A stretch of DNA of 64,000 nucleotides, taken from contig AP024681.1 of the NCBI GenBank assembly GCA_025999335.1, forward strand, positions 3,414-67,413. Direction: 5' to 3'. A program made the translations under genes and the position numbers. The DNA comes from Candidatus Parcubacteria bacterium (GTDB lineage: Bacteria; Patescibacteriota; Minisyncoccia; UBA6257; HR35). The notes under the pieces are model-generated. The model saw nothing but the letters and a program-made list of their open reading frames with translations. It was not told the origin of the DNA and did not search any database. This document shows positions 4,765 through 62,400 of the stretch, piece by piece (position 1 is the first letter of the stretch; each line of letters starts with the position of its first letter).

Positions 4765-6237
4765 ATGAATATTTATGAGGATGTTTTAAGAAGGTTAAGG
4801 GAAACAAGGCGGATTTTTAAGGGTAAGGAGAAAAAGTTTGATGAACTTTTTGAGGTTTTAAAGGAGCCACAAAGAATTATTAAAGTTAATTTGCCGCTAA
4901 GAAGAGATGATGGAAAGTTAAAGATTTATGAAGGTTACCGAGTTCAGCATAATAATTTTTTAGGTCCTTATAAAGGTGGAATAAGATATTATCCTGAAGT
5001 TGATGAAGATGAAGTTAAAACTTTGGCTTTACTTATGAGTTTGAAATGTGCTTTGGTTGGTTTGCCTTTGGGTGGAGGAAAGGGTGGAATTAAGGTTGAT
5101 CCGAAAAAATTGTCTGAAAAAGAGTTGGAGAGACTTTCAAGGGAGTATGTAAGAAAAGTTTATGATTTTATTGAACCAGAAAAAGATGTGCCGGCTCCTG
5201 ATGTTAATACGAATGCTAAAATTATGGATTGGATGGTTGATGAGTATCTTGAATTAGCGAAAAAAGATAAACAGAGAAGAGATTTAAAAATTAATTATTT
5301 GAAGGCAGCATTTACAGGAAAGTCAGTTGAAAATGGAGGATCAAAAGGAAGGGAAGAGGCAACTGGAAGAGGTGGAGTTGTTATTTTAGAAGAGATTGTT
5401 AAAAAGTTAAAAATTAAAAAACCTTTGAGAGTTGCTGTTCAGGGATTTGGAAATGTTGGTTATCATTTTGCTAAAGTTTTGTATGAAAGTAATAAAGAAT
5501 TGTTTAAAATTGTTGCTTTGTCAGATAGTAAAGGAGGAATTTATTCTGAAGAAGGTTTTAATCCGGAGTTAGTGATGGAGTGTAAAAGGGAAAGGGGATT
5601 AATTGCTGGTTGTTATTGTGTTGGAAGTGTTTGTGATATTCGCGGCTCGGCTCGCTCGATGCGTCAGTTTGTTGTGTCTAAAGTTTCCCTCGACTCGCCC
5701 CCCGAAGCCACACAGCCCTCGGCTTGGCATTCGCCAATCGCCTCCGCCGGAACAAGTCTCGGGAAACGCCATAGAAATCTACCTAAATCTAAACCGCGAA
5801 TATTTTACGGGGATATTACTAATGAACAATTGCTTGAGTTTGATGTGGATGTTTTGGTATTAGCGGCAATTGAGGATGTTATTCATAAAGGCAATGCTAA
5901 AAAAGTTAAAGCAAAAATTATTATTGAGATGGCAAATAGACCAATTACTAGTGAAGCTGATGAAATTTTAAATAAGAAGGGTGTTTTGATTGTTCCGGAT
6001 ATTTTGGCAAATTCTGGTGGAGTTATTGTTTCTTATTTTGAGATGGTGCAGAACATAAAAAATCAGGTTTGGCCTGAAAAGAAAGTTTTTGATAATTTGA
6101 AAAAACATTTAATTGAAGCTTTTAATGAAGTTTGGCGAATGAAAAATAAATTTAAAAACCTTGATTTAAGAACACTTGCTTATGGAGTAGCAATAAAAAG
6201 AATTTTGAGTAAATTTGATATAATTAAATTAAGATGA
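4765..6237 (+). CDS. gdhA: Glutamate dehydrogenase (Glu/Leu/Phe/Val dehydrogenase family) carrying a 56-codon in-frame insertion
   Basis: KGGIRYYPEV...LPLGGGKGG active-site region, GFGNVG NAD(P) Rossmann motif, C-terminal PDILANSGGVIVSYFE. 490 aa versus ~420-450 typical because of the GC-rich insert at 5636-5803. Confidence 0.85.
   Translation: MNIYEDVLRRLRETRRIFKGKEKKFDELFEVLKEPQRIIKVNLPLRRDDGKLKIYEGYRVQHNNFLGPYKGGIRYYPEVDEDEVKTLALLMSLKCALVGLPLGGGKGGIKVDPKKLSEKELERLSREYVRKVYDFIEPEKDVPAPDVNTNAKIMDWMVDEYLELAKKDKQRRDLKINYLKAAFTGKSVENGGSKGREEATGRGGVVILEEIVKKLKIKKPLRVAVQGFGNVGYHFAKVLYESNKELFKIVALSDSKGGIYSEEGFNPELVMECKRERGLIAGCYCVGSVCDIRGSARSMRQFVVSKVSLDSPPEATQPSAWHSPIASAGTSLGKRHRNLPKSKPRIFYGDITNEQLLEFDVDVLVLAAIEDVIHKGNAKKVKAKIIIEMANRPITSEADEILNKKGVLIVPDILANSGGVIVSYFEMVQNIKNQVWPEKKVFDNLKKHLIEAFNEVWRMKNKFKNLDLRTLAYGVAIKRILSKFDIIKLR
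5636..5803. repeat. 168-nt GC-enriched palindromic element inserted in frame in gdh; perfect 10-bp terminal inverted repeats ATATTCGCGG / CCGCGAATAT
   Basis: Local GC content far above flanking gene. 168 nt = 56 codons. Encodes CVGSVCDIRGSARSMRQFVVSKVSLDSPPEATQPSAWHSPIASAGTSLGKRHRNLPKSKPRIF between GDH segments that are contiguous in other GDHs. Confidence 0.65.
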
Positions 6238-6473
6238 AAAAGAGAAAAAAAATACAATTCGAGATAATTTTACAGCCAGAATCTGAAGGAGGATTTACGG
6301 TAATTGTTCCTGAACTTCCAGGATGTGTCACTTACGGAGAAAATTTAGAAGAGGCTTTAATTATGGCCAAAGACGCTATTAAAGGTTATTTACATAGTTT
6401 GAAAAAACATAAAGAACCAATTTTGAAAAAAGCAAGACCCTTAATTACATCTTTAGAAATTGAGTATGCCTAA
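6234..6473 (+). CDS. hicB: HicB-family antitoxin (UPF0150 / HicB N-terminal domain)
   Basis: FEIILQPESEGGFTVIVPELPGCVTYGENLEEALIMAKDAIKGYL matches the HicB-like fold signature; ATGA overlap with the gdh stop. Confidence 0.7.
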   Translation: MKKRKKIQFEIILQPESEGGFTVIVPELPGCVTYGENLEEALIMAKDAIKGYLHSLKKHKEPILKKARPLITSLEIEYA

Positions 6474-6699
6474 ACTACCGAGTATAAAAAGTGATGTACT
6501 TTTGAATTTTTTTTATTTCCAAGGATTTATTTTAGATCATATAACTGGTAGTCATTATATTCTCTATCATCCAAAAATATTTAAGAGAGCAGTTATTCCT
6601 TATAATAAAAAAGATCTACCTAAAGGGACAGTTTTAGCGATACTTAGAGAATCTGGATTTTCGAGAAAAGATTTAATAGAGTTTTTAACAAAGAAATAA
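6460..6699 (+). CDS. hicA: HicA-family mRNA interferase toxin (YcfA-like)
   Basis: GFILDHITGSHYILYHPKIFKRAVIPYNKKDLPKGTVLAILRESGF: conserved G-S-H motif and layout of HicA; 14-nt overlap with hicB. Confidence 0.7.
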   Translation: MSMPKLPSIKSDVLLNFFYFQGFILDHITGSHYILYHPKIFKRAVIPYNKKDLPKGTVLAILRESGFSRKDLIEFLTKK

Positions 6700-8657: not shown

Positions 8658-11027
8658 ATGAAATATATAAAATTTTTTCAAGAATTATCAAAAGATGATG
8701 TTGGTTTAGTTGGTGGTAAAAATGCTAATTTAGGAGAAATGTATCAGAAATTGATTGGTTTAGGAGTAAGAGTTCCGAGTGGATTTGCGGTGACTGCTGA
8801 AGGTTACGATTATTTTATTCAATTTAATAATTTAGAAAATAAGATAAAAGAAATTCTACAAAATACTAATATTTATGATGTCTCTCAACTTCAAAAAGCA
8901 GGAGAAGAAATAAGAAATTTAATTAAACAGGGCGAGTTTCCAGAAGATTTGAAGAATGAAATTCTAAGTGCTTTTGAAGAGTTGAAAAAAGAATATAGCG
9001 AAAATTTACAAGTAGCCGTAAGAAGTAGCGCTACAGCTGAAGACCTGCCTGATGCTTCATTCGCGGGGCAGCAAGAAACATATTTAAATGTGACTGAAAA
9101 AGATTTATTAGAAAAAGTTAAGTTCTGTTTTGCTTCTTTGTTTACTGATCGAGCAATTTTTTATAGACAAGAAAAAGGATTTGATCATTTTAAAGTAAAA
9201 CTTTCTGTTGGTATTCAAAAAATGGTAAGATCTGACCTAGCAAGTTCGGGAGTGATGTTTACTATTGACGCTGATTCTGGTTTAGATAAAGTAATTGTTG
9301 TTAATGGAGTTTGGGGATTGGGAGAGCTTATTGTTCAAGGAAAAGTTATTCCGGATGAGTGGATTGTTTTTAAAGTTGGTTTAGAAAGAGGCTGTCGAAG
9401 TATTATTAGCAAAAGATTAGGTGAAAAAGTTAAAAAAATTGTTTATGGAGAAAATGGAGGAGTAGCAGAAGTTGAAACCGAACAAAAAGAAAAGGAAATT
9501 TTTTCTTTAAGCGATGATGAAGTGTTAGAACTGGCAAAAATGGGCTATATTATTGAAAAGCATTATAAAAGAGCAATGGATATTGAATGGGCAAAAGATG
9601 GCGTTGATGGTAAGCTTTATATTGTTCAAGCAAGACCAGAAACTGTCCATTCGGCTAAAAAGAAAAATGTTTGGGTTGAGTATAAATTAAAAGCGAGAGG
9701 AGAGATTTTAACAAAAGGTATAGCAATTGGTTCAAAAATTAGTTCAGGAAAAGTTAGAGTGATTAAAGATGTTTCAAAAATAAATGAATTTCAAGAAGGA
9801 GAAATTTTAGTTACAGAAATGACCGATCCAGACTGGGTGCCAATTATGAAAATTGCTAAAGGAATAATTACTGATAAAGGAGGAAGAACTTGCCATGCGG
9901 CTATAGTATCACGAGAACTTGGAATTCCTGCAATTGTTGGCACAGGAAATGCAACAGAAATTTTAAAAACCGGAGATGAAGTGACAATTGATTGCAGTGC
10001 TGGAATTACTGGTTATATTTATAAAGGAATTTTAGATTATGAAGTTATTGAACATAATTTAGAAGAGATTCCTGAAACTAAAATAAAAATTTATGTTAAT
10101 ATTGGACTTCCTGATGAAGCTTGGGAAAGATGGTATTTACCAGTTAAAGGTGTAGGACTTGCTCGTGAAGAATTTATTATTGCTGAAGAAATAAAAATTC
10201 ATCCTAATGCATTGATTGATTATCCAAATTTACCAGAGGACATTAAACAAAAAATAGATGAACTCGTAAAAGATTATGAAGATAAAAAACAATATTTTGT
10301 TGATAAATTAGCTGAAGGGATTGCTAAAATTTGTACTGCTTATTATCCTTATGAAGTAATAGTTAGATTTTCTGATTTTAAGACAAATGAATATGCAAAT
10401 TTAATCGGCGGTGAACTTTATGAGCCTAAAGAAGATAATCCGATGATTGGTTGGCGAGGAGCAAGCAGATATTATCATTCAAAATTTCAAGAAGCTTTTA
10501 AATTAGAAGTTTTAGCAATGAAAAAAGTAAGAGAAGAGATGGGGTTAGATAATTTAGTAATGATGGTGCCGTTTTGTCGAACTCCTGAAGAAGGAAGAAA
10601 AGTTATGGAAATTATTGAAAGTATAATGGGTAAAAGAGAGGAAAAAGGATATAAAGTTTATGTTATGGCAGAAATCCCTTCAAATATTTTGCAAGCCGAA
10701 GAATTTTTAGAGATTTTTGATGGAATGTCAATTGGTTCAAATGATTTAACACAACTCACTTTAGGAATTGATCGTGATAATGAAATTTTACAAGGATTAG
10801 CTGATGAAAGAAATGAATCAGTGAAAAAATTAATTTCTCAAGTAATTAAAATTTGTAAAGAAAAAAATAAATACATTGGTATTTGTGGTCAAGCTCCAAG
10901 TGATTTTCCAGAAATAGTTGAACTTTTAGTTAAAAAAGGAATTGAAAGTATAAGTGTTAATAGTGATGTGGTGATTAAAACAATTGAATTGGTTAAAAAG
11001 TTTGAGGATGAAAATAGAAAATATTAA
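8658..11027 (+). CDS. ppsA: Phosphoenolpyruvate synthase (pyruvate, water dikinase)
   Basis: N-terminal DVGLVGGKNANLGEM, SSATAEDLPDASFAGQQETYLNV, phospho-His domain GGRTCHAAIVSRELGIPAIVG, C-terminal PEP-utilising TIM-barrel. Confidence 0.85.
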   Translation: MKYIKFFQELSKDDVGLVGGKNANLGEMYQKLIGLGVRVPSGFAVTAEGYDYFIQFNNLENKIKEILQNTNIYDVSQLQKAGEEIRNLIKQGEFPEDLKNEILSAFEELKKEYSENLQVAVRSSATAEDLPDASFAGQQETYLNVTEKDLLEKVKFCFASLFTDRAIFYRQEKGFDHFKVKLSVGIQKMVRSDLASSGVMFTIDADSGLDKVIVVNGVWGLGELIVQGKVIPDEWIVFKVGLERGCRSIISKRLGEKVKKIVYGENGGVAEVETEQKEKEIFSLSDDEVLELAKMGYIIEKHYKRAMDIEWAKDGVDGKLYIVQARPETVHSAKKKNVWVEYKLKARGEILTKGIAIGSKISSGKVRVIKDVSKINEFQEGEILVTEMTDPDWVPIMKIAKGIITDKGGRTCHAAIVSRELGIPAIVGTGNATEILKTGDEVTIDCSAGITGYIYKGILDYEVIEHNLEEIPETKIKIYVNIGLPDEAWERWYLPVKGVGLAREEFIIAEEIKIHPNALIDYPNLPEDIKQKIDELVKDYEDKKQYFVDKLAEGIAKICTAYYPYEVIVRFSDFKTNEYANLIGGELYEPKEDNPMIGWRGASRYYHSKFQEAFKLEVLAMKKVREEMGLDNLVMMVPFCRTPEEGRKVMEIIESIMGKREEKGYKVYVMAEIPSNILQAEEFLEIFDGMSIGSNDLTQLTLGIDRDNEILQGLADERNESVKKLISQVIKICKEKNKYIGICGQAPSDFPEIVELLVKKGIESISVNSDVVIKTIELVKKFEDENRKY

Positions 11028-12195
11028 AGCGAATAAAATTCTTGATTCAAGAGGGGAGTGGACAGTTGAGGTTGAAATTGAAAGTGAAAACAAAGGAAAA
11101 GCTTCAATTCCTTCAGGAAAAAGTTTGGGATCTCATGAGGCAGTTTGTTTAGATTGTGATTTAATTGAAAAGAATTTACCAGAATTTTTAAAAGAAGTTA
11201 AGAATTTTGATTTTAAGTCTTCTCAAGAATTTGATAATTTTTTAATTGAAAGAGCAGGAAAGAATAAAGAAAAATTAGGAGGGAATTTTACTTTAGGATG
11301 TTCAATTGCATTTGCAAAAGTATTAGCTAAAAAAGAAGGATTAGAACTTTATGAATATTTGGAGAAAGAATATACGCAGACAACCGCAAACTATACGCAG
11401 GCAGCCGCAGAGAGTTATAATAATAGTCCGCGGGAGTTTGCGTTAAGTCTGCAGGAATCCGCGCCTACTCCAAAATTAATTATCAATATTATTGGTGGTG
11501 GGGTTCATTCTTTTAATAATTTAGATTTTCAGGAGTGTTGGCTAGTAAGCAAACAAAGTTTTTCCGAAAAATTGATTGCTGAAATTTTAAGCGTAATTAA
11601 TATTTTAGAAAATAAACTCTCAAAACCATTAGGAAGAAATGATGAGGGAGCGTTTTGTACAAATTTTAATGACAATTATGAACCTTTTATTTATTTAAAT
11701 CAATTTAAAGAAAATTTTGAGCTTGGCGCGGATATTGCTGCTAATCAAATTAAAAAAGACATAAATTGGCAAGAAATTTATCATCAATTAAAAAAATTAA
11801 ATGTTACTTATTTAGAAGATCCTTACAAAGAAGATGAATTTGAATATTTTGCGAACTTAAGAAAAGAAGGATTTAAAGTTATCGGGGACGATTTAACAAC
11901 AACTAATACAGAAAGATTAAAAACTGCTTTAGAAAAAAATTCTCTTGATGGAGTAATTGTTAAACCAAATCAAATTGGAACAATTAAAGAAACTTTTGAT
12001 TTTATAAAACTAGCAAAAGAAAATAATTTATTTACAATTTTTTCTCATCGCAGCGGAGAAACTAATGATAATTGGATTATTGATTTAGGAATTTCTTTCA
12101 ATGCTGATTATTTTAAAATTGGCGTGCCATTACAAGGCGAAAGAATTGCTAAATGGAACAGATTAAAAGAAATTTTTGATAAAAATGATAAGTAA
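11008..12195 (+). CDS. eno: Enolase (divergent), with a ~30-codon in-frame insert
   Basis: MKIENIKANKILDSRGEWTVEVEIE N-terminus, VKPNQIGTIKETFDFIKLA...SHRSGETNDNWIIDLGI C-terminal signature. Start chosen at the internal ATG 11008 (overlaps the ppsA stop by 20 nt) rather than the longer ORF start 10984. Confidence 0.8.
   Translation: MKIENIKANKILDSRGEWTVEVEIESENKGKASIPSGKSLGSHEAVCLDCDLIEKNLPEFLKEVKNFDFKSSQEFDNFLIERAGKNKEKLGGNFTLGCSIAFAKVLAKKEGLELYEYLEKEYTQTTANYTQAAAESYNNSPREFALSLQESAPTPKLIINIIGGGVHSFNNLDFQECWLVSKQSFSEKLIAEILSVINILENKLSKPLGRNDEGAFCTNFNDNYEPFIYLNQFKENFELGADIAANQIKKDINWQEIYHQLKKLNVTYLEDPYKEDEFEYFANLRKEGFKVIGDDLTTTNTERLKTALEKNSLDGVIVKPNQIGTIKETFDFIKLAKENNLFTIFSHRSGETNDNWIIDLGISFNADYFKIGVPLQGERIAKWNRLKEIFDKNDK
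11374..11463. repeat. ~90-nt GC-enriched element inserted in frame in eno; divergent member of the GCGAAC-type family
   Basis: Encodes TQTTANYTQAAAESYNNSPREFALSLQESA between the enolase LYEYL and PTPKLIINIIGGG segments. Shares the ANY..NN.REF peptide core and TATAATAG..CGCG nucleotide core with the pcm and rpe inserts. Internal ccgcgg palindrome and gcagac/gtctgc inverted repeat. Confidence 0.5.
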
Positions 12196-28382: not shown

Positions 28383-30110
28383 ATGATAAACATAATAAAA
28401 TCAAACAAATTTACTTTCTCTTCTCTTTCTTTTGTAATTTTATTAATTATTTTCTTTATTCCCTCAACAAGCAATTCTCAACAATCTCAATATCAAGGTA
28501 AAATAGGTTCTTATCCTATTGTTATTGAAGCTTTTAATCTTTTAGATGATAATCAAACCATAAAAGGAAGATATAGGTATCAGAATAAAGATGTGTGGTT
28601 AATCTTAAAAGGAAAGATTGACTTAAAAAATAATTCTGTGTCTATAGATGAATACGATGAAAATAATGTTAAGACTGGAATATTTACGGGAGAATATGAT
28701 AAGAAATCAAACTCTATAAAACTAACAAGTTGGTCTAATCCTAAGAAAAAAACATCATTAAAAGTATATTTACCTTCTATAAATCTTATAAAAATTAGCA
28801 AACAAGAAAAAATATCAGGAGTAACAAATTTTCTTAAAACTGAAAAAATTTATACTATACCTAATGGTTATAAGTTAGTTGAGATAAAAATTTTAACAAG
28901 TTCAAAAAGATATGCATTATTATTAAAAACTCCAGAAGGAAAATATACAGTTGTCTTAGACGGCAAAGAAAGTAAGAAGTATGATGGTTTATATGGTTTC
29001 ACTTTCTCTCCTGATGGTCAACATTTTGCTTATATTGTCGGAGAAGATTGTATGTATTATAATGAATGCTCAAAATATTTTGTAGTCTTAGATGAAAAAG
29101 AAGGGAAAAAATATGATTATATTGATAAAAATAACCTCACTTTCTCTCCCAATGGTCAACATTTTGCTTATATCGCTAGAAAAGAAGGCAAAAGTTTTGT
29201 AATTTTAGACGGAAAAAGAAAAAAAAGTTATGATGATATTAATAACTTAACTTTCTCTCCTGATGGTCAACATTTTGCTTATATAGCTAGGGAAAAAGGT
29301 AAATATGCTGTGGTTTTAAACGGAAAAGAAAGCGAAAAATATGATATTGCTTATAATCTTATTTTCTCTCCTGATGGTCAACATTTTGCTTATGTCGCTA
29401 GAAAAGAAGGCAAAAGTTTTGTAATTTTAGACGGAAAAAGAAAAAAAAGTTATGATGATATTAATAACTTAACTTTCTCTCCTGATAGTCAACATTTTGC
29501 TTATGTCGCTGGAATCGGCAAAGATTGTGTATATATCCTTAACCTTTATGAATATCAATGTTTAAAATATTTTGTAGTTCTAGATGGTAAAGAAGGTGAA
29601 AAATATGATGGTATTTATAATTTTATCTTTTCCCCCAATGGTCAACATATTGCTTATATAGCTGGAGAAAATTGCAACATATATCTTAGACCTGAATACT
29701 GTTCTAAATATTTTATTGTCTTAGATAACAAAAAAAGCAGCAAAAAATATGAGTATGGTGACATAGATGAATCTAGTCTCAAATTTTCTCCTAACAGTCA
29801 ACATTTCGCTTATATAGCTAGAGAAAAACGTAAATATGCTGTGGTTTTAAACGGAAAAGAAAACGAAAAATATGATAGTGCTTATAATCTTATTTTCTCT
29901 CCTGATAGTCAACATTTTGCTTATATAGCTGGAAAAGATTGTATGTATTATAATGATAATGAATGTTCAAAATATTTTATAGTTTTAGATAACAAAGAAA
30001 GTGAGGAATATGATAAAATATATCAGTTTAATTTTCTTGAAAATAATAAAAACTTAATTTACTTTGTTTTAAAGAATAATGAGATTTGGAGAATTGTTGA
30101 AGAGTTGTGA
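28383..30110 (+). CDS. Secreted PD40-like (TolB C-terminal type) beta-propeller repeat protein, paralog 1
   Basis: Signal peptide; ~13 tandem ~40-aa repeats of the form KYD..Y...FSPDGQHFAYIA..GK..VVLDGKE. Confidence 0.6.
   Translation: MINIIKSNKFTFSSLSFVILLIIFFIPSTSNSQQSQYQGKIGSYPIVIEAFNLLDDNQTIKGRYRYQNKDVWLILKGKIDLKNNSVSIDEYDENNVKTGIFTGEYDKKSNSIKLTSWSNPKKKTSLKVYLPSINLIKISKQEKISGVTNFLKTEKIYTIPNGYKLVEIKILTSSKRYALLLKTPEGKYTVVLDGKESKKYDGLYGFTFSPDGQHFAYIVGEDCMYYNECSKYFVVLDEKEGKKYDYIDKNNLTFSPNGQHFAYIARKEGKSFVILDGKRKKSYDDINNLTFSPDGQHFAYIAREKGKYAVVLNGKESEKYDIAYNLIFSPDGQHFAYVARKEGKSFVILDGKRKKSYDDINNLTFSPDSQHFAYVAGIGKDCVYILNLYEYQCLKYFVVLDGKEGEKYDGIYNFIFSPNGQHIAYIAGENCNIYLRPEYCSKYFIVLDNKKSSKKYEYGDIDESSLKFSPNSQHFAYIAREKRKYAVVLNGKENEKYDSAYNLIFSPDSQHFAYIAGKDCMYYNDNECSKYFIVLDNKESEEYDKIYQFNFLENNKNLIYFVLKNNEIWRIVEEL
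28486..29050. repeat. ~565-bp near-identical direct repeat (copy 1) shared with 30233-30797: 5' modules of the two PD40 paralogs
   Basis: Nucleotide strings identical over long stretches when the two gene starts are compared by eye; the same 73-aa antisense ORFs appear at 28580..28801 and 30337..30558. Confidence 0.8.
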
Positions 30111-30142
30111 TTTTTTTCATATATTTTTTATAATAATAAAAA

Positions 30143-32426
30143 ATGACATCAAGAAATTATACTCTTAGCTTGTTTACTCTCCTTCTTGTTATTATTGTTT
30201 CTATTTTCTTTTCTTTTCCGCAAAATACTTACTCTCAACAATCTCAATATCAAGGTAAAATAGGTTCTTATCCTATTGTTATTGAAGCTTTTAATCTTTT
30301 AGATGATAATCAAACCATAGAAGGAAGATATAGGTATCAGAATAAAGATGTGTGGTTAATCTTAAAAGGAAAGATTGACTTAAAAAATAATTCTGTGTCT
30401 ATAGATGAATACGATGAAAATAATGTTAAGACTGGAATATTTACGGGAGAATATGATAAGAAATCAAACTCTATAAAACTAACAAGTTGGTCTAATCCTA
30501 AGAAAAAAACATCATTAAAAGTATATTTACCTTCTATAAATCTTATAAAAATTAGCAAACAAGAAAAAATATCAGGAGTAACAAATTTTCTTAAAACTGA
30601 AAAAATTTATACTATACCTAATGGTTATAATTTAGTTGAGATAAAAATTTTAACAAGTTCAAAAAGATATGCATTATTATTAAAAACTCCAGAAGGAAAA
30701 TATACAGTTGTCTTAGACGGCAAAGAAAGTAAGAAGTATGATGGTTTATATGGTTTCACTTTCTCTCCTGATGGTCAACATTTTGCTTATATTGTCGGAG
30801 AAAATTGTAAAAAACAATATTCATATGATGAATGCTCAAAATATTTTGTAGTTTTAGATGAAAAAGAAGGGGAAAAATATGATGGTATTTATAATTTTAT
30901 CTTTTCCCCTAACAGTCAACATTTTGCTTATTTAGCTAAAGAAGATTGTAAAAAACAATATTCATATGATGAATGCTCAAAATATTTTGTAGTTTTAGAT
31001 AATAAAGAGGGAGAAAAATATAATTCTATTAGTAACCTCACTTTCTCTCCCAATAGTCAACATTTTATTTATAGCGCCATAAAAGAAGGAAAAAAAATTG
31101 TAATTCTCGATGGTAAAGAAGGAGAAAAATATGATTTTATTATTGACCCTATTTTTTCTCCTAATGGAGAACATCTCGCTTATATAGCCGGAAAAGATGA
31201 AAAATATTTTATTGTACTCGATGGAAAAGAAGGTAAAAAGTATGAATACGTTTCTAACTTTGGTTTCTCTCCTAATAGCCAACATCTTTTTTATATAGTT
31301 GGAGAACATTGTTTTATGAATCGTAAAGATTGCCCAGTTTCTTTTGTGGTCTTAGACAAAAAAGAAGGTAAGAAGTATGATAATATCTATAATATTATTT
31401 TCTCTCCTGATAGTCAACATTTTGCTTATATAGCTAGTAAAAAAGGAAAAGAAACTGTGGTTCTCGATGGGAAAGAAGGCAAAAAGTATGACGAAGTTCA
31501 CTTTTATACTTTCACTTTCTCTTCTAACAATCAAAATTTTGTTTATAGAGCTAAAAAAGAAGAAAAATACATTGTGGTTTTTAATGAAAAAGAAGGCAAG
31601 GAATATGAACAAGTTTATGATTTAATTTTATCTCCAGATTATAAACATTTTGCTTATATAGCCGGAGAAGATTGCAAAGAAACAGATCAATGTTCAAAAT
31701 ATTTCGTAGTGTTAGACGGAAAAGAAGAAAAAAGATATAATTATGTTTATAATTTAATTTTATCTCCAGATTATAAACATTTTGCTTATGCTATCAAGGA
31801 AAAAGAAGGATATTTCGTTATCTTAGATGGGGAAAAAAAGTAATAAGTATGATTATGTCTATAAGCTCACTTTCTCTCCTGATAGTCAACATTTTGCTTA
31901 TATAGCTAAAAAAGAAGGCAAAGATATTGTAGTTTTAGATGGTAAAGAAAGTAAAAAATATGACAATGTTTATGATTTTATATTTTCTCCTGATGGTCAA
32001 CATTTTGCTTATATAGCTAGTAAAGAAGGGAAAAATGTTGTAGTTTTAGATGGGGAAGAAGGAGAGCAATATGATAGTATTTATGATTTTGCATTCTCTC
32101 CTGATAGTAGACGTTTTATTTATAGAGCTCAGAAAGAAGAAAAAGAAATTGTAGTTATAAATAAAAAAGAAGGCAAAAAATATGATTATATTAACGAAGG
32201 TAGCTTCACTTTCTCTCCTGATGGTCAACATTTTGCTTATATAGCTGGAAAAGATTGTATATATTATAATGATAATGAATGTTCAAAATATTTTATAGTT
32301 TTAGATAACAAAGAAAGTGAGGAATATGATAAAATATATCAGTTTAATTTTCTTGAAAATAATAAAATCTTAATTTACTTTGCTTTAAAGAATAATGAGA
32401 TTTGGAGAATTGTTGAAGAGTTGTGA
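30143..32426 (+). pseudogene. Secreted PD40-like beta-propeller repeat protein, paralog 2, split by a frameshift at an A7 tract (31833-31839) into ORFs 30143..31843 and 31827..32426
   Basis: Signal peptide and N-terminal ~220 aa nearly identical to paralog 1; last ~60 aa nearly identical to the paralog 1 C-terminus (DC.YYNDNECSKYFIVLDNKESEEYDKIYQFNFLENNK.LIYF.LKNNEIWRIVEEL); removing one A from the A7 run restores the repeat unit ...VILDGEKKSNKYDYVYKLTFSPD. Confidence 0.55.
30233..30797. repeat. ~565-bp near-identical direct repeat (copy 2)
   Basis: See copy 1; a second shorter repeat pair (~170 bp) joins 29930-30110 with 32250-32430. Confidence 0.8.
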
Positions 32427-32513
32427 TTTTTTTATATATTTTTGTATAATATTATATTAATATTAAAATTTATTATTAGTTTTAAAAATTAATTAATATA
32501 AACATATAAAAAA

Positions 32514-36330: not shown

Positions 36331-37491
36331 ATGCCCACACCACGCTCTCTTTATCCATTTGAATTTCCAAAGCAAAAAAGGGATAAATTGATTGAAGAAT
36401 TAAAAGAATATCGCGGCTTAAAAACAAAATTAACTTTTTCATTTCCTTTAAATAGAACAAGAAAAGAAATCTTAAAAATGATTGCTGAAGGAAAAATAAA
36501 AGAGGAAATTATAATTAAACTTTTACAAAGTTCAGATTTTATAGAAAAAAAGATCGGATTATTTTTATTAAAACAACCCCATTCTTTTTCTAATAAAGGT
36601 TACCCAAAAATAATTTCAATTTTAGAAAAAATGAAAGACGATGAAGATATGTATGTTAGAGCAGCGGTTGCCGAAGCCCTTGGTAATTTAGGCAAAAAAG
36701 GTTTGTCAATCTTAAAAAAAATGAAAAATGACGAAGAGTGGTATGTCCGGATTGCAGTTTCTAAGGCTCTAGGTAATTTCAAGAAAAAAAAATTACCGTT
36801 TTTAGAAAGAATAATACAAGATAAAGATTTAGATATCCCTGCAGAGCTTGGCGAAATGTTTAATGATTTAATTAAAAAATTTTTATTAATTTTTAAAAAA
36901 GAAAAAGGATACAAATGGCTTTTAGCTTCTCAAAAACCCCTATTTGCTACTGTTTTTACAAGAGAACTAGCAGAAAGAATTTTAAAGATCCAAAAAATAG
37001 TTGAAAAATTAAAGAAAGAATTTAAAGATGAATTTATTGGTATTATTGTATTTGGAAGTACTCATAAAGGCTATTTTATGCCAGGAAGTGATTTGGATTG
37101 GGCAATTATTACTCAAAATCCAAAATGTGCTGAAGAATTTAAAAAAATATCTAAAAGTGAAAATCTTGATTTATGCTATGAACATAAAATTATTGTTAAC
37201 AAAGAATATCAATTAGATAATTTTTCTATTTTTTTAGCTGTAGTTTTATTTCAAGGTCTTTTTTGGGGCGATTATGAAAAACTTAAAAAAATCCAAAGTA
37301 ATTTTTTAAAAAACATTGATGAGAAAAAGTGGGATAAGATTAGAAGAAGAATTATGGAGAACGAAACAAAACTATCAAAAGCAGCAGAAAGACTTAATTT
37401 AAAAAAAGATGAAATAGAAAGAATAGAATTAGCTAGCTCTATTTTACGAGTTCCGCCTTCTTATAAAGAAGCTTTAGAATTGTTTAAATAA
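36331..37491 (+). CDS. HEAT-repeat protein fused to a minimal nucleotidyltransferase (pol-beta-like) domain
   Basis: Two PBS-lyase-type HEAT repeats (MYVRAAVAEALGNLGKKG / WYVRIAVSKALGNF) followed by an NTase motif GIIVFGSTHKGYFMPGSDLDWAII. Confidence 0.45.
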   Translation: MPTPRSLYPFEFPKQKRDKLIEELKEYRGLKTKLTFSFPLNRTRKEILKMIAEGKIKEEIIIKLLQSSDFIEKKIGLFLLKQPHSFSNKGYPKIISILEKMKDDEDMYVRAAVAEALGNLGKKGLSILKKMKNDEEWYVRIAVSKALGNFKKKKLPFLERIIQDKDLDIPAELGEMFNDLIKKFLLIFKKEKGYKWLLASQKPLFATVFTRELAERILKIQKIVEKLKKEFKDEFIGIIVFGSTHKGYFMPGSDLDWAIITQNPKCAEEFKKISKSENLDLCYEHKIIVNKEYQLDNFSIFLAVVLFQGLFWGDYEKLKKIQSNFLKNIDEKKWDKIRRRIMENETKLSKAAERLNLKKDEIERIELASSILRVPPSYKEALELFK

Positions 37492-37573
37492 TTTATTTAT
37501 TTTTAATAAATGGTTTAGCAAAGAAATAAACATAAACACTTGGTATATTAAATGGTATATTAAAATATAGTTT

Positions 37574-37608
37574 TTAAGTTCGCAAAAGAATTATTTTGCG
37601 AACTTAAA
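37574..37608. terminator. near-perfect 35-nt palindrome ttaagttcgcaaaagaat|tattttgcgaacttaa (likely terminator/operator)
   Basis: 17/18 positions self-complementary; sits 80 nt after the preceding + strand gene and ~190 nt before murC; contains the GTTCGC/GCGAAC motif. Confidence 0.4.
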
Positions 37609-37799
37609 ATAAATTAATTTATAAATTTAATCAACTAATCTTAATAACAAAATTTATGGCTTTAATTTTTTCAATTTAATTTTATTCATCGTCGCCCTTC
37701 TCTCTGTTTAAACAATTATTTCGTTTATATTATTTATGTATAACTTTTAAGAAAATATTTATTTTATTTTGATAAAATATTATTAAAACTAAAATAACA

Positions 37800-39245
37800 A
37801 TGATTGACATTTTTTCAATAAAAAAAGCTTATTTAGTTGGTATTAAAGGTGTAGGAATGACAGCTCTGGCGTCAATTTTGAAAAATTTAAAAATAGAAGT
37901 TGTTGGTTCAGACACAAACGAAAAATTTTTTACTGATGATGTTTTAAAAAAACATAAAATCAAATATTATGAAAATTTTAATAAAAATAATTTAATAAAA
38001 GAAATGCCTATCGATGTTGTTATTAGTTCCCTTGCCTATTTACCCCAAATGCATTATTTTCCTAAAACAACAAAGATTAATCAACAAAATATAAATCTAA
38101 AATCGCCGATACCCGAAATTAATTTAGCGACTAAATTAAATATTCCTATACTTACTTACCCACAAGCTTTAGCTAATATATTTAACCAATCTTTTGGTAT
38201 AGCTATTTGCGGATCTCACGGCAAAAGCTCAACAACAGCTATTTTAGGTCATATATTTAAAAAAGCAGGCCTAGCCCCCAATGTCGTTGTTGGCTCAGAA
38301 GTTATTGATTGGCAAAGCAACTCTTTAACAGATAAAAACTTAAAAAATAAAATAGCTTTTCTTCAAAAAAATAAACATAAAATTTCTGATCTTGATTTTA
38401 TAAGAAAAAACATAAAAAGACTTCCTTTATTTATTATTGAAGCAGACGAATACAAAGAATCTTTTCTTAATTATCATCCTAAAATTATTATTATTACCAA
38501 TATTGACTATGACCATCCTGACTACTTTAAAAATGCGGAAAAGTATAAATTAGCTTTTAAAAAATTTATAAAAAACGCAACACCACCGCATATAACCATT
38601 ACTCATCGTAACAAAAAAAAATTTATCAAAAATGATAAAATTAAAAATTTTCCCTTCCCTATTCCTGGTAAACATTTTCAAAAAAACTTACAACTTATTT
38701 ATGCTTTGATAAAAATTATTAAAATACCAATAAAAAATTTTATTAATAGCATAAAAAGTTATAGAGGCATAAAAAGACGATTTGAGATTGTAAAAAATTT
38801 TACTTATAAAAATAAAAAAATTATTTTTATTGATGACTATGCTCATCATCCAACTGAAGTATTAAGTTTTTATAAAAGTTTAACTGAAAAATATCCAGAT
38901 TATTTCAAGTATTTTGTTTTTCAACCACATACCTATTCACGTACTCATTATTTATTTGCATCTTTTAAAAAAACGTTTATAACAATTAAAAAAGATAGTT
39001 CAACAAAAGTAATATTATTTAAAACATTTCCCTCAGCAAGAGAACATAAAAATATATTGCAAATAAAAAAATTAGTCACAATTAATGATTTAGCCAAAAT
39101 AACGAATATTGATTATTTTGAATCATATTTACTATTAGCAAAATTTATCAAAAACGATATCTTAAAAAATAACCATAAAAAAATAATAATCAGCACTATA
39201 GGCGCTGGCAATATATATAATTTATTTAATAAAATTAAATTTTAA
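37800..39245 (+). CDS. murC: UDP-N-acetylmuramate--L-alanine ligase-like Mur ligase
   Basis: N-terminal VGIKGVGMTALASIL...VVGSD, ICGSHGKSSTTAILGHIF nucleotide-binding motif, EADEYKESFL...NIDYDHPDYF. Confidence 0.7.
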   Translation: MIDIFSIKKAYLVGIKGVGMTALASILKNLKIEVVGSDTNEKFFTDDVLKKHKIKYYENFNKNNLIKEMPIDVVISSLAYLPQMHYFPKTTKINQQNINLKSPIPEINLATKLNIPILTYPQALANIFNQSFGIAICGSHGKSSTTAILGHIFKKAGLAPNVVVGSEVIDWQSNSLTDKNLKNKIAFLQKNKHKISDLDFIRKNIKRLPLFIIEADEYKESFLNYHPKIIIITNIDYDHPDYFKNAEKYKLAFKKFIKNATPPHITITHRNKKKFIKNDKIKNFPFPIPGKHFQKNLQLIYALIKIIKIPIKNFINSIKSYRGIKRRFEIVKNFTYKNKKIIFIDDYAHHPTEVLSFYKSLTEKYPDYFKYFVFQPHTYSRTHYLFASFKKTFITIKKDSSTKVILFKTFPSAREHKNILQIKKLVTINDLAKITNIDYFESYLLLAKFIKNDILKNNHKKIIISTIGAGNIYNLFNKIKF

Positions 39246-55133: not shown

Positions 55134-55853
55134 TTAATCGCCTACCAAAGGCACAAAACTAAACCCAAAATAAAATTCTTTATTTATTTTATCACCTGAT
55201 TTTTTAATTTTATATATGCCATTATCAGCAGGAATAACTAAAACACCATTATCGTTAAGTTGATCAAGCAATGATTGGGGAATCTTTTTAGCTGCAGCGC
55301 TAATTAAAATTCTATCAAAAGGCGCTTTTTCTGGTAATCCTTTAGAACCATCGCCTAAAAAAATCTCAACTATGCCCTTCTTTAAAAAATTATATTTTTC
55401 GATATTCCTTTTGCCGAACTCAAAAACTTCAGGAGCTATTTCAATTGCATAGACTTTTCCAGACGCGAACTCTTGCGAACCATCTCGCGAACTTGTGCGA
55501 ACTTTATCATCTTCTATTCGTGTAGGTTCGCGATTGCTATTATAGTTCGTATTTGTTCGTGTTATCTCCGCCAACAAACAAGTAGTCCAACCCGAACCAA
55601 AACCAACATCTAAAATTTTTTGTTCTTGTTTCGGCTCTAAAAGTTCCAACATAAAAGCAACCGTGTAAGGCTGGGAAATGGTTTGTTCCCTTCCAATTGG
55701 CAAAGGATAATCATTATAAGCCTCATTTAAAAATTCTTGAGGCACAAAATCTTTACGGTCAATTCTTAAGAAAGCTTTAATAATTTCCGGAGTTTTTAAT
55801 ACTTTTCTTTCTTTTAAAGATTCAACTAATTCTTTATTACTTTGATAAAACAT
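55134..55853 (-). CDS. pcm: Protein-L-isoaspartate O-methyltransferase, with 33-34-codon in-frame insert
   Basis: ISQPYTVAFMLELL, SAM-binding ILDVGFGSGWTTCLLAEI ... GKVYAIEI, C-terminal FDRILISAAA...IPAD. Confidence 0.8.
   Translation of the reverse strand: MFYQSNKELVESLKERKVLKTPEIIKAFLRIDRKDFVPQEFLNEAYNDYPLPIGREQTISQPYTVAFMLELLEPKQEQKILDVGFGSGWTTCLLAEITRTNTNYNSNREPTRIEDDKVRTSSRDGSQEFASGKVYAIEIAPEVFEFGKRNIEKYNFLKKGIVEIFLGDGSKGLPEKAPFDRILISAAAKKIPQSLLDQLNDNGVLVIPADNGIYKIKKSGDKINKEFYFGFSFVPLVGD
55463..55561. repeat. ~99-nt GCGAAC-rich palindromic element inserted in frame in pcm
   Basis: + strand cgcgaactcttgcgaaccatctcgcgaacttgtgcgaac...ggttcgcg...gttcgtatttgttcgtgt; gene-sense termini ACACGAAC...GTTCGCGT (imperfect inverted repeat); encodes TRTNTNYNSNREPTRIEDDKVRTSSRDGSQEFAS absent from Pcm orthologs. 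Confidence 0.65.
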
Positions 55854-56107: not shown

Positions 56108-56884
56108 TTATTTATAATTTTTTATAATTTCTATAAAACCTAAATAAGTTTTGAAGGGATCTTCTGTATTGTAAATAGCGCTTGCCATAATAATAAAATC
56201 AGGTTCATAAGTTAAAATTTGTCTTAAATTTTGCTGATTTATACCACCATCAATCATCAATTTTTGATTTTTTTTAAGTTTTTTTTTAATAAAAGCAAGA
56301 CGATTATAAGTATCTTCTAAAAAACTCTGGCCGGCTCTTCCTGGATTAACTCCTAAAATTAATACGCCATTAACAAAATCTAAATATTTTTTAATAAAGT
56401 CAAAAGTAATTTTAGGTGACCAACCTATAAATATCTCTTTTTTTGTTTTTTTAGCTAATTTTAAAAGACCATCGGGATTAGAACTTGCCTCTAAATGCAA
56501 AATTAATCTTTTAACATTTTCTTTCGCCCACTTTAGAATTTCTTGAGGTTTTAAAGGAATCATTAGATGAATGTCAAATACTATGCGCGAACTACTACGA
56601 ACACTATTATTAATCGCGAACTTATGCGAACTCCCATCCGAACCATTGCCAACATCATTATCATCTGTTGGCATCAGTTCGCGGTTATTACCATAATTCG
56701 CATCAATTCGTGTCAATTCTAATCTATCCAAATCATTATAATTCCTCCAGGTTTCATAACCAGTAAAACTTTTTTCGGCTACATCTAAATGAAAATTTTG
56801 GGTTGAATCTTTCAAAATATTAACTTTCTCCTTAATTTCTTCAAAACTCTGAGCATTAATTGCCGGAATAATTTTTGTTTTCAT
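56108..56884 (-). CDS. rpe: Ribulose-phosphate 3-epimerase-like (divergent), with ~43-codon in-frame insert
   Basis: DIHLMIPLKP, ILGVNPGRAGQSF, MIDGGIN motifs of the ribulose-phosphate-binding barrel; adjacent to rpiB. Confidence 0.6.
   Translation of the reverse strand: MKTKIIPAINAQSFEEIKEKVNILKDSTQNFHLDVAEKSFTGYETWRNYNDLDRLELTRIDANYGNNRELMPTDDNDVGNGSDGSSHKFAINNSVRSSSRIVFDIHLMIPLKPQEILKWAKENVKRLILHLEASSNPDGLLKLAKKTKKEIFIGWSPKITFDFIKKYLDFVNGVLILGVNPGRAGQSFLEDTYNRLAFIKKKLKKNQKLMIDGGINQQNLRQILTYEPDFIIMASAIYNTEDPFKTYLGFIEIIKNYK
56586..56713. repeat. ~128-nt GCGAAC-rich palindromic element inserted in frame in rpe; homologous to the pcm insert
   Basis: Gene-sense ACACGAATTGATGCGAATTATGGTAATAACCGCGAAC...GTTCGCGC aligns at ~70% identity with the pcm element; encodes TRIDANYGNNRELMPTDDNDVGNGSDGSSHKFAINNSVRSSSR (compare TRTNTNYNSNREPT...SRDGSQEFA). 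Confidence 0.65.
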
Positions 56885-59474: not shown

Positions 59475-62400
59475 TATTCATTAGTCGTTATCGCTGGTTG
59501 ATTCTCTGATTGATTATTATTAATAGAACTATTAGATTCAGCATTAGAACTATTAGACGAATTATTACTAGAATTATCTTGAAAAGTATTATTGTTTATG
59601 TTAGAACTCTCTGAAGATTGATTATTAAGATTGCTTGAAGCACTATTATTGCTTGCCGGTAGGTTATTTGTTTCTTGATCAGAATTAACAGAAGATTCAG
59701 ATGTTACTGATGAAGACGAGGAAGACGAGGATGAAGAAGAGGATGGCGATGAAGAAGAGGTTGAAGTATTAGAAGTTGACGAAGACGAAGATGTTGTTGT
59801 TGATGATGGCAAATCTGATGTTGAAGAGCTGCTTGTTTGTTGAGTTTGATTATTATTAGAATTACTCACATTTCCATTATTATTACCAGAATTCCCAGAA
59901 TTATAATTATTATTGCTACTATTAAAATTATTAAGAGTTGACATATCTGAAGCATTAGAACAATTACCTTTAATCTTTTTAAGCTCGCCAGCAGCTATGT
60001 ATACGCAATAAGATTCACCAGTAATCTGATCTTTCATTTCTAAAAATTCTGTTTTTATTTTTGGTGAGATTATATAACTTGCCGATAATTGCTGAACTAT
60101 TATTTCTTTTACTGTCAATAAATTCTTTTCAATTGTTAAACCTAATGATCGTAAAGCATCAACAACATAGTATTGAATGTTTAAGAAGAAATCTTTCACT
60201 AATTGATAAAGATAAATAGGTAAACTTTCATACTTAATTCCTTCTGGGGTCCCATCTTTAAATCTTACCAATTCTGGAAATTGAGTTGCTACTTCTTCAG
60301 CAATAAACCCAACTTGTTTACCCGGCAAATTAAATGGTAAATCATTTTTAAATTCAAACTCTTTAGGAGTTAATGATAAAAATTTATCTTTATCAAAAAG
60401 TAAAGCTTGAATATTCGTTTTATAACGTAAAGATGAGGGCGTGCAAATAATTTTTCCTGAAGCATCTGCTGATAAAGAACAGTTAACGGCGTTTGTTTGT
60501 AAAATATCTCCTTGAACTGTTAACTTTGCCAAAGGCGTCGTTGTTCCAATAGCAACAGAATTTTCTGTCATTCTCATTATTTCTTCGCCTCGTTGATTTT
60601 TCAAAATTAAAGCTTGTGGCGAAATTGATGTTTCAGTTTCCACAAATCTAAATTCATTAGCAAAAACTAAGTCACCAACAGTTGTTGTTCCTGCGTAAAG
60701 ATTTGCCCATCTTCTTCCAGACGCTCCTAAACTATAAAGATTATCAGCTTCCGGTAAAATACTCCAAGCAGTTGTTGTTCCTGACACATGTAATTTTGTC
60801 GCCGGCGTCGTTGTTCCGATAGCAACAGAACTCGTTGTTATTCTCATTATTTCATTTGTATTGCTCTTAAAAATAATACTACCTTGTTTTGAAGCTGTGC
60901 TTGTACTACTCGTCCCTGCTGTTATAATAACACTACCAGCTTGATCACCACCACTATTGCCAGCAGTAATATTAATATTACCAACAGCACTTGAAAAACC
61001 GGTATCAGATGTCCTAATGGTAACGCTACCAATAGATACGGAAGAACCTGTAGCAGCTATTATAATATTTCCAGAAGTAAGACCTGGACCAGAACTAATA
61101 AGCACATCTCCTCCCTTTGAAAAGTTCGTACCACCCATACCACCAAGAATGTTAACTGAACCTCCTTTGGCTATGGTTGTAGTACTTCTGTCAACATTAC
61201 CTCCTCTAATATTAATATCACCACCTCTAGCACTACCTGAAGAAGTTGCTCCTAAAATAGTTAAATCTGCTCCTGCGGTATTAGAAGTATAAGAAGGAAG
61301 AATATTAATAGTTACATTTTTTTGAGGGCTAAAGAAAAGGTTACTATCTAAACTACTAAGCGTTACTGTAGCAAAAGTAGAAGTATTTAAAACAGTAAGA
61401 TTACCAGTTATTAAAGCATTACCTTGAACAGCAAAATTTACAATCGGACTCGTTGTTCCGATACCGACGTTGCCGCTTGAAACAGCTGAACCTGTAGCAG
61501 TATTAATTCCAGTTGCAAAAATAAGATTACCGATATTTAAGAAATTAGAAGTTGTTGTTGCCGGAGTGCCTGCTTGATAACCTATTAAGATATTTCGAGA
61601 ACCAACAGTTGGAGCAAAAACTGAATCATAGCCTGACTGATAACCAATAATAATATTTCCTGTGCCTGTGGTTAATTGATAGCCTGAAAAAGCTCCGAGT
61701 AAAGTATTATAACGATCAGCGGAGGTGTCTAAATTAAAACCAGATTGATAACCTACAGCAACGCCATAATTCATTCCTTTTGCTTGATAACCTACAGCAG
61801 CGCCACTACCAAATCCTTGAGCGCCATACCCCACTCCAACGCCATAACCAAAGCCCCATGAATCATATCCTATAGCAACACCAGAAACAATGGCTGAAGC
61901 ATTATATCCTACAGCAACACCGGAAATATAACCTTGAGCATTATATCCAATAGCAGTACCTGAACTATAACCTGCGGCACTATATCCTACAGCAACACCG
62001 GAATTGTAACCTCGAGCATTATATCCAATAGCAGTACCTGAACTATACCCCAAAGAACTATAGCCTATAGCTACCCCTGAAGACGCTGAATTAGCCCCAA
62101 TACCAACGCTTACCCCATAATCAGTGCTATAACTATTTGCGCCAATAGCTAGACCATAATTATATGAGCGAACTAAAAGCGAATTCAAAATATCTACAAA
62201 ATCAAAACTTCCCCAACCTGTATTAAGATAAACAATTTTAGCACCTTTAAAAGTTGTAAGTTTATTTATTATAGATGTAGCCCCAACTTGTTTAATAATT
62301 ATTTCACTGCTACTTGTAGGTGCTGAAACATTATAAATAACAAATGAATCGCCTTGACGAGCTGTTGCTGTTGCTAAATATACAGTTACCGATGAAGTAG

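Follow-up and report, generated by a model that had tools for sequence, protein, structure and literature searches.

The window analysed here is a stretch of 64,000 nucleotides from a Candidatus Parcubacteria bacterium (contig AP024681.1, positions 3,414 to 67,413 of the forward strand). It carries a gene for glutamate dehydrogenase (GDH), gdh, which is interrupted by a GC-rich block of 168 nt. The product of the open reading frame (ORF) 4765..6237 is identical to BCX15117.1 from a 680-kb contig; an exact-sequence look-up returned no match for this GDH or for the protein P0122. GDHs in the PDB match the product at E 1e-111, with the alignment broken at query residues 281/351, and the Pfam domains ELFV_dehydrog_N and ELFV_dehydrog were both found in it. 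The gdh frame stays open across the whole insert. The initial annotation had described a 168-nt span with perfect 10-bp terminal inverted repeats, in frame in gdh and radically different in composition, and all three statements were reproduced. The parts of the locus are as follows.

4765..6237, plus strand: GDH host gene, an ORF of 490 aa, interrupted between D291 and D350
5636..5803: the flagged block with 10-bp inverted-repeat ends, 168 nt, GC 0.548
5636..5645: left terminal repeat ATATTCGCGG, of which TTCGCGG (5639-5645), with the next CTCGGCTC, is the sole part common to other loci
5794..5803: right terminal repeat CCGCGAATAT, the exact reverse complement of ATATTCGCGG
5638..5811, plus strand: replacing segment IRGSARSMRQ...KPRIFYG, codons 292-349, 174 nt, as aligned to the empty allele of L002
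5636..5682: left outer arm, with TTCGCGGCTCGGCTC (5639-5653) as its family-level end and, at 5662-5674, a small hairpin that has decayed
5683..5767, minus strand: inner module of 85 nt, folding best on the G-rich strand, covariance-model match of 89-107 bits at 5 loci
5699..5752: conserved core of 54 nt, 100% identical in the membrane-protein copies of L010 and L022 and 53/54 in L027
5768..5803: right outer arm, GC 0.36 after decay towards AT, with neutral-rate divergence

The gdh block is a nested composite of left arm (5636-5682), module (5683-5767) and right arm (5768-5803). Its GC content rises inwards, from 0.548 for the block to 0.647 for the module and 0.685 for the core, against 0.28-0.33 in the rest of gdh and 0.275 in the window, and it is the strongest GC island across the 64 kb. 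It is small, holds no transposase gene and has no independent ORF besides the read-through frames. The small hairpin of the left arm is intact in the related locus L001 (CGCCA-GTT-TGGCG).

The 10-bp inverted repeat by itself is within chance: three GC-containing 10-mers with their complement 50-500 nt away are present in the window, and 1.3 in Markov shuffles. The terminal repeat is nevertheless credible, because it coincides with the GC boundary and with the indel boundary against orthologues, and because it is conserved in L001. There the right repeat is CCGCGAATAG with TCGA before it, which lengthens the match to the left arm, so that the pairing of 10/10 bp in the window becomes 9/10 plus a TCG extension. 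TTCGCGG(Y)TCGGCTC is the only terminal sequence common to other copies. The outer ATA/TAT is locus-specific and self-complementary, so a direct repeat is equally possible.

The nearest GDHs come from bacteria of the candidate phyla radiation, labelled Pacebacteria, Parcubacteria or Minisyncoccia, and both filled and empty sites exist among them.

P0001, 490 aa (L009, GCA_041640215.1): matches the window at 99.8% over 11.3 kb and has the identical insert
P0002, 486 aa (L001, Logan SRR21619497): insert present, 91% identical
P0003, 433 aa (L002-L007, 13 contigs, one of 344 kb): empty site

In the empty allele the site reads TGTGAT|TCAAGATTAGGTAAG|GATATT, encoding D-SRLGK-D, and the window has 174 nt between the same anchors. 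Therefore 58 codons stand in place of 5 (174 nt versus 15 nt, net +159 nt). Outgroup GDHs have SRLGK or IRLGR at this place, which indicates that the short loop is ancestral. The orthologues have this 5-residue loop rather than a homologous long one, so the condition that the initial annotation named as refuting its reading did not arise, and the insert was found with the same junctions in three independent assemblies. The gdh segment is an insertion rather than a product of assembly. The protein boundaries given by the initial annotation were misplaced by about 9 residues, since GCYCVGSVCD, counted there as insert, is conserved host sequence, and the true segment is 5638-5811. GCYCVGSVCD (window 5611-5637, residues 283-291) is a Cys-rich beta-hairpin with three cysteines that is conserved in the GDHs of this group and missing in Thermotoga GDH; the insert sits directly after it.

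Possible target duplications are ATATT at 5636-5640/5800-5804 and GATATT at 5635-5640/5812-5817; ATAT is self-complementary, and relative to the empty allele 15 nt are replaced. Readings with an ATATT duplication, a GATATT duplication or a 159-nt core element were tried, and none of them regenerates the empty allele in frame. In the comparison of gdh sequences the closest pair is L001, which is filled, and L002, which is empty (94%). This conflict with the gene tree points to polymorphism with recombination, to loss by allele replacement, or to re-insertion.

A second copy of the 168-nt block is absent from the window and was not found elsewhere. Judged from sequence comparison, the repeated unit is the 85-nt module 5683-5767 and not the 168-nt block. 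BLAST and a covariance model showed that the module recurs at four other places, all in related genomes.

gdh: module copies in the window, L009 and L001
Ogt-Sua5 fusion gene: module copies in L012, L018, L002 and L003
Ogt-Sua5 gene of L001, 726-808: inverted module, its closing stem being of a third type
Start of a small gene, L001 11956-12041: module copy, 0.5 kb downstream of gdh
Gene of membrane protein P0121: module copies in L010, L022, L027 and L028
L011, a Pacebacteria genome: half copy of the module, an intergenic remnant

All of the in-gene copies (GDH, Ogt-Sua5, membrane protein, small ORF) are in frame and free of stop codons. The membrane-protein copy has 54 nt identical to 5699-5752 but reads them in a different frame, and it is closed by a wholly different perfect stem, GTGCCGCGCGGTTCAT/ATGAACCGCGCCGGCAC. 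The initial annotation had suggested a second family of in-frame palindromic inserts and, as a check, a search for further copies bounded by terminal inverted repeats. The empty allele and the related in-frame copies bear out the family; the unit is the module rather than the 168-nt block, and it is the module that has copies at the four other loci. The proposed tie to GCGAAC-type elements through a TTCGCG motif was borne out by shared TTCGCG(G) ends and by the physical association of such arrays with copies, the family being otherwise distinct.

Wider searches added few members. The 168 nt, translated in six frames and compared with 5.8 billion proteins, matched only two GDHs and, weakly, P0121. 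The 20-mer GGCTTGGCATTCGCCAATCG was scanned over 185,579 species genomes and the JGI metagenomes; the true matches were few and all in related AT-rich genomes, with only 2 among the species genomes. The remaining 20-mer matches (3/5 in genomes, 6/8 in metagenomes and 3/3 in viruses) were rejected as chance matches in GC-rich DNA with unrelated flanks. P0129, the best of three phmmer matches of the in-frame peptide among 1.84 billion representatives, was rejected as well, being an ORF over a 53-nt satellite in unrelated DNA. A covariance-model search of 221 kb found no further diverged copies.

Ahead of the third copy in L001 stands TTCGCGGTTCGGCTCCGCTCGG, which is also the left arm in gdh; after the copy come AAGTTTATTA and a second GC-rich palindrome, exactly as in L012. 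The same arrangement in two unrelated genes indicates that the module and the second palindrome travel together. The second palindrome (CGAGCGGGTTCAG...ACTGACCCGCGAGCG) lies at L012 1846-1955 and L001 12055-12131, after a AAGTTTATTA-type spacer of about 15 nt, and contig L001 ends within it. The motif TTGTGAT stands directly before the GC-rich element in gdh (window 5629-5637) and in L010 (310-318), but not in L012. In L010 it belongs to an extended palindrome, GATTGTG...CACAATTC. It may reflect a target preference, microhomology or chance. The contig of L027/L029 (JAVYLF010000003.1, GCA_038741235.1) is labelled Candidatus Aenigmatarchaeota; its gene order is that of the bacterial loci (gdh, csoR-like, DUF7128, DUF411) and its GDH is of bacterial type, and it is probably a mis-binned contig of the candidate phyla radiation.

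The module folds in a strand-specific manner, which answers the initial suggestion to fold the RNA. The G-rich strand, antisense to gdh, reached -45.8 kcal/mol (z -4.75, 0/200 shuffles), versus only -26.7 (z -2.26) for the sense strand. The structure consists of a closing helix P1, a 2x2 tandem GA/GA internal loop, a helix P2 and two apical hairpins. It was tested on seven copies, with slid partners and shuffles as controls. Across these copies 98.7% of the cells pair; changes on both sides of a pair numbered 8, against at most 1 with slid partners, and no shuffle matched the observed covariation. These figures come from the same sequences from which the structure was derived, and the closing stems are probably non-homologous. 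Several pairs are U.G and valid on the G-rich strand only, and one apical hairpin switches from UUGGC/GCCAA to UCGGC/GCCGA. The closing stems of the copies are unrelated in sequence and pair in every case. The covariation result therefore means that a closing helix is always present, and is no demonstration of slow compensatory evolution.

Rfam 15 gave no relevant match on either strand at E values up to 10 (the whole window at gathering thresholds, and permissive scans of the element and two related loci), the matches being tRNAs elsewhere and noise. ARAGORN found no tRNA or tmRNA in the element, and an origin as a tRNA-derived element was rejected. A scan for minus-strand promoter or terminator signals beside the module, or a terminator inside it, was negative. 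The cumulative GC skew of the window peaks at about 18 near 37000-38000 and then falls, which could mark a replication terminus or a mere switch of gene orientation. Because gdh lies on the G-rich side of the skew, the foldable strand of the module would be the leading-strand template.

The arms and the module diverge at different rates. Between the window and L001, fourfold sites of the gdh flanks differ by 13.2% and the outer arms by 13.6% (11/81), with changes mostly towards A/T in the window copy. The agreement of the two values indicates that the outer arms are neutral. The module shows 4/85 differences and two 1-nt indels that compensate each other. Insert substitutions fall 8/4/3 on codon positions 1/2/3, lacking the third-position excess, and the middle of the peptide is frame-shifted (PSAWHSPIA in the window versus PRLGIRQSP in L001), the frame being regained 23 nt later. 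These results indicate that the peptide is free of amino-acid selection while the frame is kept. In L027, whose GDH shares only 67% identity with P0003, the core matches at 53/54 positions; taken at the sequence level, such a core in a distant genome fits either recent horizontal spread or strong constraint.

In the protein, the insert site lies between residues 268 and 276 of T. maritima GDH, in the loop that comes next after the second Rossmann strand and its following helix. The 58-residue peptide starts with IRG and ends with FYG, followed by D. An AlphaFold2 model built with 60 homologues has a predicted local distance difference test score (pLDDT) of 86.4 overall; residues 293-345 fall below 50 and form the only low-confidence segment, with confident strands on either side. 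The model agrees with a disordered loop that is tolerated on the surface of the NAD-binding domain, and the insert is probably translated as a floppy extra loop. A read-through GDH would yield the following peptides.

Peptides of read-through GDH: SVCDIRGSAR, PRIFYGDITNEQ and IFYGDITNEQLLEFDVDVLVLAAIEDVIHK

An intein was rejected, as the insert has no N-terminal Cys/Ser/Thr and no C-terminal His-Asn, and its 58 residues compare with at least about 130. Just downstream of the insert-bearing gene, a hicB-like/hicA-like toxin-antitoxin pair (window 6234-6699) overlaps the gdh stop codon; sister genomes have a csoR-like gene in its place.

At four loci, sister genomes hold different insert content at the identical site.

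gdh loop: composite element, GTTCGCG array (L008 1990-2130), or empty
Ogt-Sua5: module forward (L012 1740-1960) or inverted (L001 640-960)
Membrane protein: module (L010 300-410), or TTCGCGGCTCGGCTC with a CCGAAT array (L003 16085-16260)
Start of the small gene: composite (L001 11916-12131) or GCGAAC array (L002 11765-11830)

At L008, L011, the third locus of L001, and L003, copies are found in physical association with TTCGCGG-type ends and GTTCGC arrays. These loops could be insertion hotspots, but it seems more likely to us that resident palindromic inserts attract further insertion and exchange, as is the case for yeast mitochondrial GC clusters (PMC8811140).

The window holds further in-frame inserts, and at least four enzymes within its 64 kb are interrupted in frame: GDH, enolase, and the protein-isoaspartate methyltransferase-like (PCMT-like) and ribulose-phosphate 3-epimerase-like enzymes. 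The PCMT-like gene (ORF 55134..55853, minus strand) has its insert at 55455-55560 and the epimerase-like gene (ORF 56108..56884, minus strand) at 56580-56720. Both inserts consist of about four GCGAAC repeats at a spacing of about 11 nt, followed by inverted GTTCGY repeats, and encode peptides such as ITRTNTNYNSNREPTRIEDDKVRTSSRDGSQEFASG. The enolase-like gene (ORF 10984..12195, plus strand) carries a third type of insert at 11373-11478, with ACGCAG/CTGCG inverted motifs (YTQTTANYTQAAAESYNNSPREFALSLQESA). Coding tandem repeats are also present, with 111-nt units (and multiples) over about 3.5 kb at 28900-32450 and eight 39-nt units in a minus-strand gene at 61742-62081.

Taken together, the gdh block is probably a non-autonomous, GC-rich palindromic selfish element of the kind represented by the Rickettsia palindromic elements (RPEs) and the yeast mitochondrial GC clusters, tolerated because it is read through. 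The element would have landed in a surface loop of the GDH NAD-binding domain and would be transcribed and then read by the ribosome as a disordered loop of 58 residues, with the enzyme still working. Only in-frame, stop-free copies would survive in essential genes, and this selection is our proposed reason for the in-frame state of the copies. The element would spread as DNA, by means of a trans-acting enzyme or by recombination or gene conversion between copies, and the folded single strand would be the recognised form. The element would prefer, or survive only in, existing palindromic inserts and permissive loops. A conserved interior with variable ends points to folded-strand recognition or to spread by recombination, although the mechanism is one that we infer.

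Several observations weigh against such an element. Copies are few: 1 in the 64-kb window, 3 in 12 kb of L001, none added by the 221 kb, and the 2 true 20-mer matches among the species genomes. No transposase or mobilising enzyme was identified, no genome-wide transposase search having been made, and no clean target-site duplication is definable at gdh. A conserved interior with non-homologous ends is the reverse of a classical terminal-repeat transposon. The two indel states of the gdh copies equal subtypes at other loci (the window has that of L010, and L001 that of L012), so that, on sequence grounds, the indels may come from gene conversion between copies rather than from selection on the frame in gdh. 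Translation of the insert is likewise something that we infer.

The strongest alternative is that the module is a functional structured nucleic acid, for instance a small antisense RNA, a structure acting in cis, or a motif that is catalytic or recognised by a protein, for which the location in genes is secondary. The core is conserved far better than its hosts (53-54/54 identical, against 67% identity of the GDHs), the module diverges at 4/85 against 13.6% in the arms, and the strand-specific fold has U.G pairs, a conserved tandem GA/GA loop and covariation. The G-rich strand is antisense to the host gene in 5/6 independent insertions; however, this bias is non-significant (p ~0.1), and one copy is inverted. 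Recent transfer or gene conversion would account for such high conservation just as well. The copies lie in unrelated genes without a common neighbour, no promoter-like or terminator-like site stands beside the module on the minus strand, and Rfam holds no matching family. A functional nucleic acid is therefore unlikely. We regard as doubtful, too, a bolder reading of the core, in which the 54 nt with their tandem-G.A helix would be a new catalytic or enzyme-recognised motif (an RNA that cleaves and ligates itself, or an end of single-stranded DNA). Such a motif would power a cassette-like system, which would time and again enter the same housekeeping-gene loops of bacteria of the candidate phyla radiation, exchange content there, and move between lineages whose GDHs are only 67% identical.

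If the insert were removed when the gene is expressed, through excision and religation of the RNA or through ribosomal bypassing like that of the byp elements derived from GC clusters in Magnusiomyces mitochondria, the mature GDH would lack it. A long closing helix that joins both junctions is still formed by the mRNA-sense strand, and inserts derived from GC clusters are bypassed in one yeast lineage (PMC8811140). Removal would need neither a kept frame nor freedom from stops, but the length of the gdh insert is divisible by three in both lineages and all in-gene copies are open in the host frame. No intron, ribozyme or intein signature was detected, and Rfam gave none. mRNA splicing beyond group I/II introns is not known in this bacterial group, which also counts against removal, and we consider removal very unlikely.

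It is just as improbable that the segment is an exapted, lineage-specific GDH loop selected for its peptide. The insert has been kept in two lineages about 8-10% apart in nucleotide sequence, and inserts arose at the gdh loop more than once (L008). However, the 8/4/3 distribution of substitutions and the frame-shifted middle (PSAWHSPIA versus PRLGIRQSP) do not fit selection on the peptide, other genes read this DNA in different frames, the segment is predicted to be disordered, and the closest sister lacks the insert and keeps the ancestral loop. An assembly chimera or a one-off captured foreign GC-rich fragment, which the strongly foreign composition and the end of contig L001 inside a related GC-rich block could suggest, is hardly credible given the same junctions in three independent assemblies including the 680-kb contig, the module at four other loci, and the unrelated flanks of the 20-mer matches in GC-rich genomes.

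Textbooks treat in-frame selfish DNA as a peculiarity of Rickettsia and fungal mitochondria. Its occurrence in a bacterium of the candidate phyla radiation with a genome of about 0.7 Mb suggests that extreme genome reduction and AT bias may repeatedly favour small palindromic parasites hidden in proteins. Such inserts inflate protein lengths, give spurious 'novel' loops and may break assemblies; contig L001 ends within a related GC-rich block. A small, conserved, strand-specific structure with natural filled and empty alleles offers a handle on how the element moves and on how enzymes tolerate disordered insertions of 50-60 residues, and the interest would rise sharply if the core turned out to catalyse a reaction or to be what a new mobilisation system acts on. 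The literature, of which coverage was incomplete, yielded no account of palindromic inserts lying in frame in genes of this bacterial group. The feature is absent from Rfam 15 and from the literature searched, while its kind is already known.

Among known systems, the double-hairpin elements of Allomyces and other fungal mitochondria have two adjacent GC-rich hairpins as the mobile unit and occur in intergenic, rRNA and protein-coding sequence; compared with the module they are organellar, shorter and without a long closing helix. Palindrome-associated elements derived from IS200/IS605 and REP/RAYT repeats have subterminal hairpins recognised on one strand, lack terminal repeats and duplications, insert beside a fixed tetra- or pentanucleotide and depend on a cognate HUH transposase. 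The hairpin of the module is strand-specific as well, and TTGTGAT stands before the element in gdh and L010 but not in L012. [quoted passage not shown] The gdh block has the terminal inverted repeats, the small size and the lack of a transposase gene. In contrast, MITEs keep their ends, which are transposase binding sites, and vary inside, whereas the gdh family does the reverse; a target duplication is not definable for it, and the loci examined held no parent insertion sequence.

RPEs (Ogata et al. 2000 via PMC10969869) are palindromic repeats of about 100-150 nt without coding capacity of their own that lie in frame in housekeeping genes. As far as that account goes, the likeness is close: a palindrome in frame in unrelated housekeeping genes, read through, at fold-tolerant sites, in a reduced AT-rich genome. 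The gdh element belongs to another phylum and is an analogue rather than a member. It also differs in being strongly GC-rich relative to its host, in having a conserved interior with interchangeable closing stems, and in being nested in other repeats, and its copy number seems far below the 44 RPE copies given there for R. conorii.

Yeast mitochondrial GC clusters (PMC8811140) include in-frame insertions in var1 and byp elements, merge and shuffle into composites, and are hotspots of recombination and gene conversion. They are organellar, mostly 30-50 nt and in some cases bypassed by the ribosome, whereas the gdh insert keeps the frame open; their AG/TAG terminal repeats are read as target duplications, whereas the gdh element ends in TTCGCGG/CCGCGAA and resides in a bacterial host. 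What the two have in common is a GC-rich palindrome in an AT-rich genome (core 0.685 versus 0.275), filled and empty in-frame alleles, and the formation of composites.

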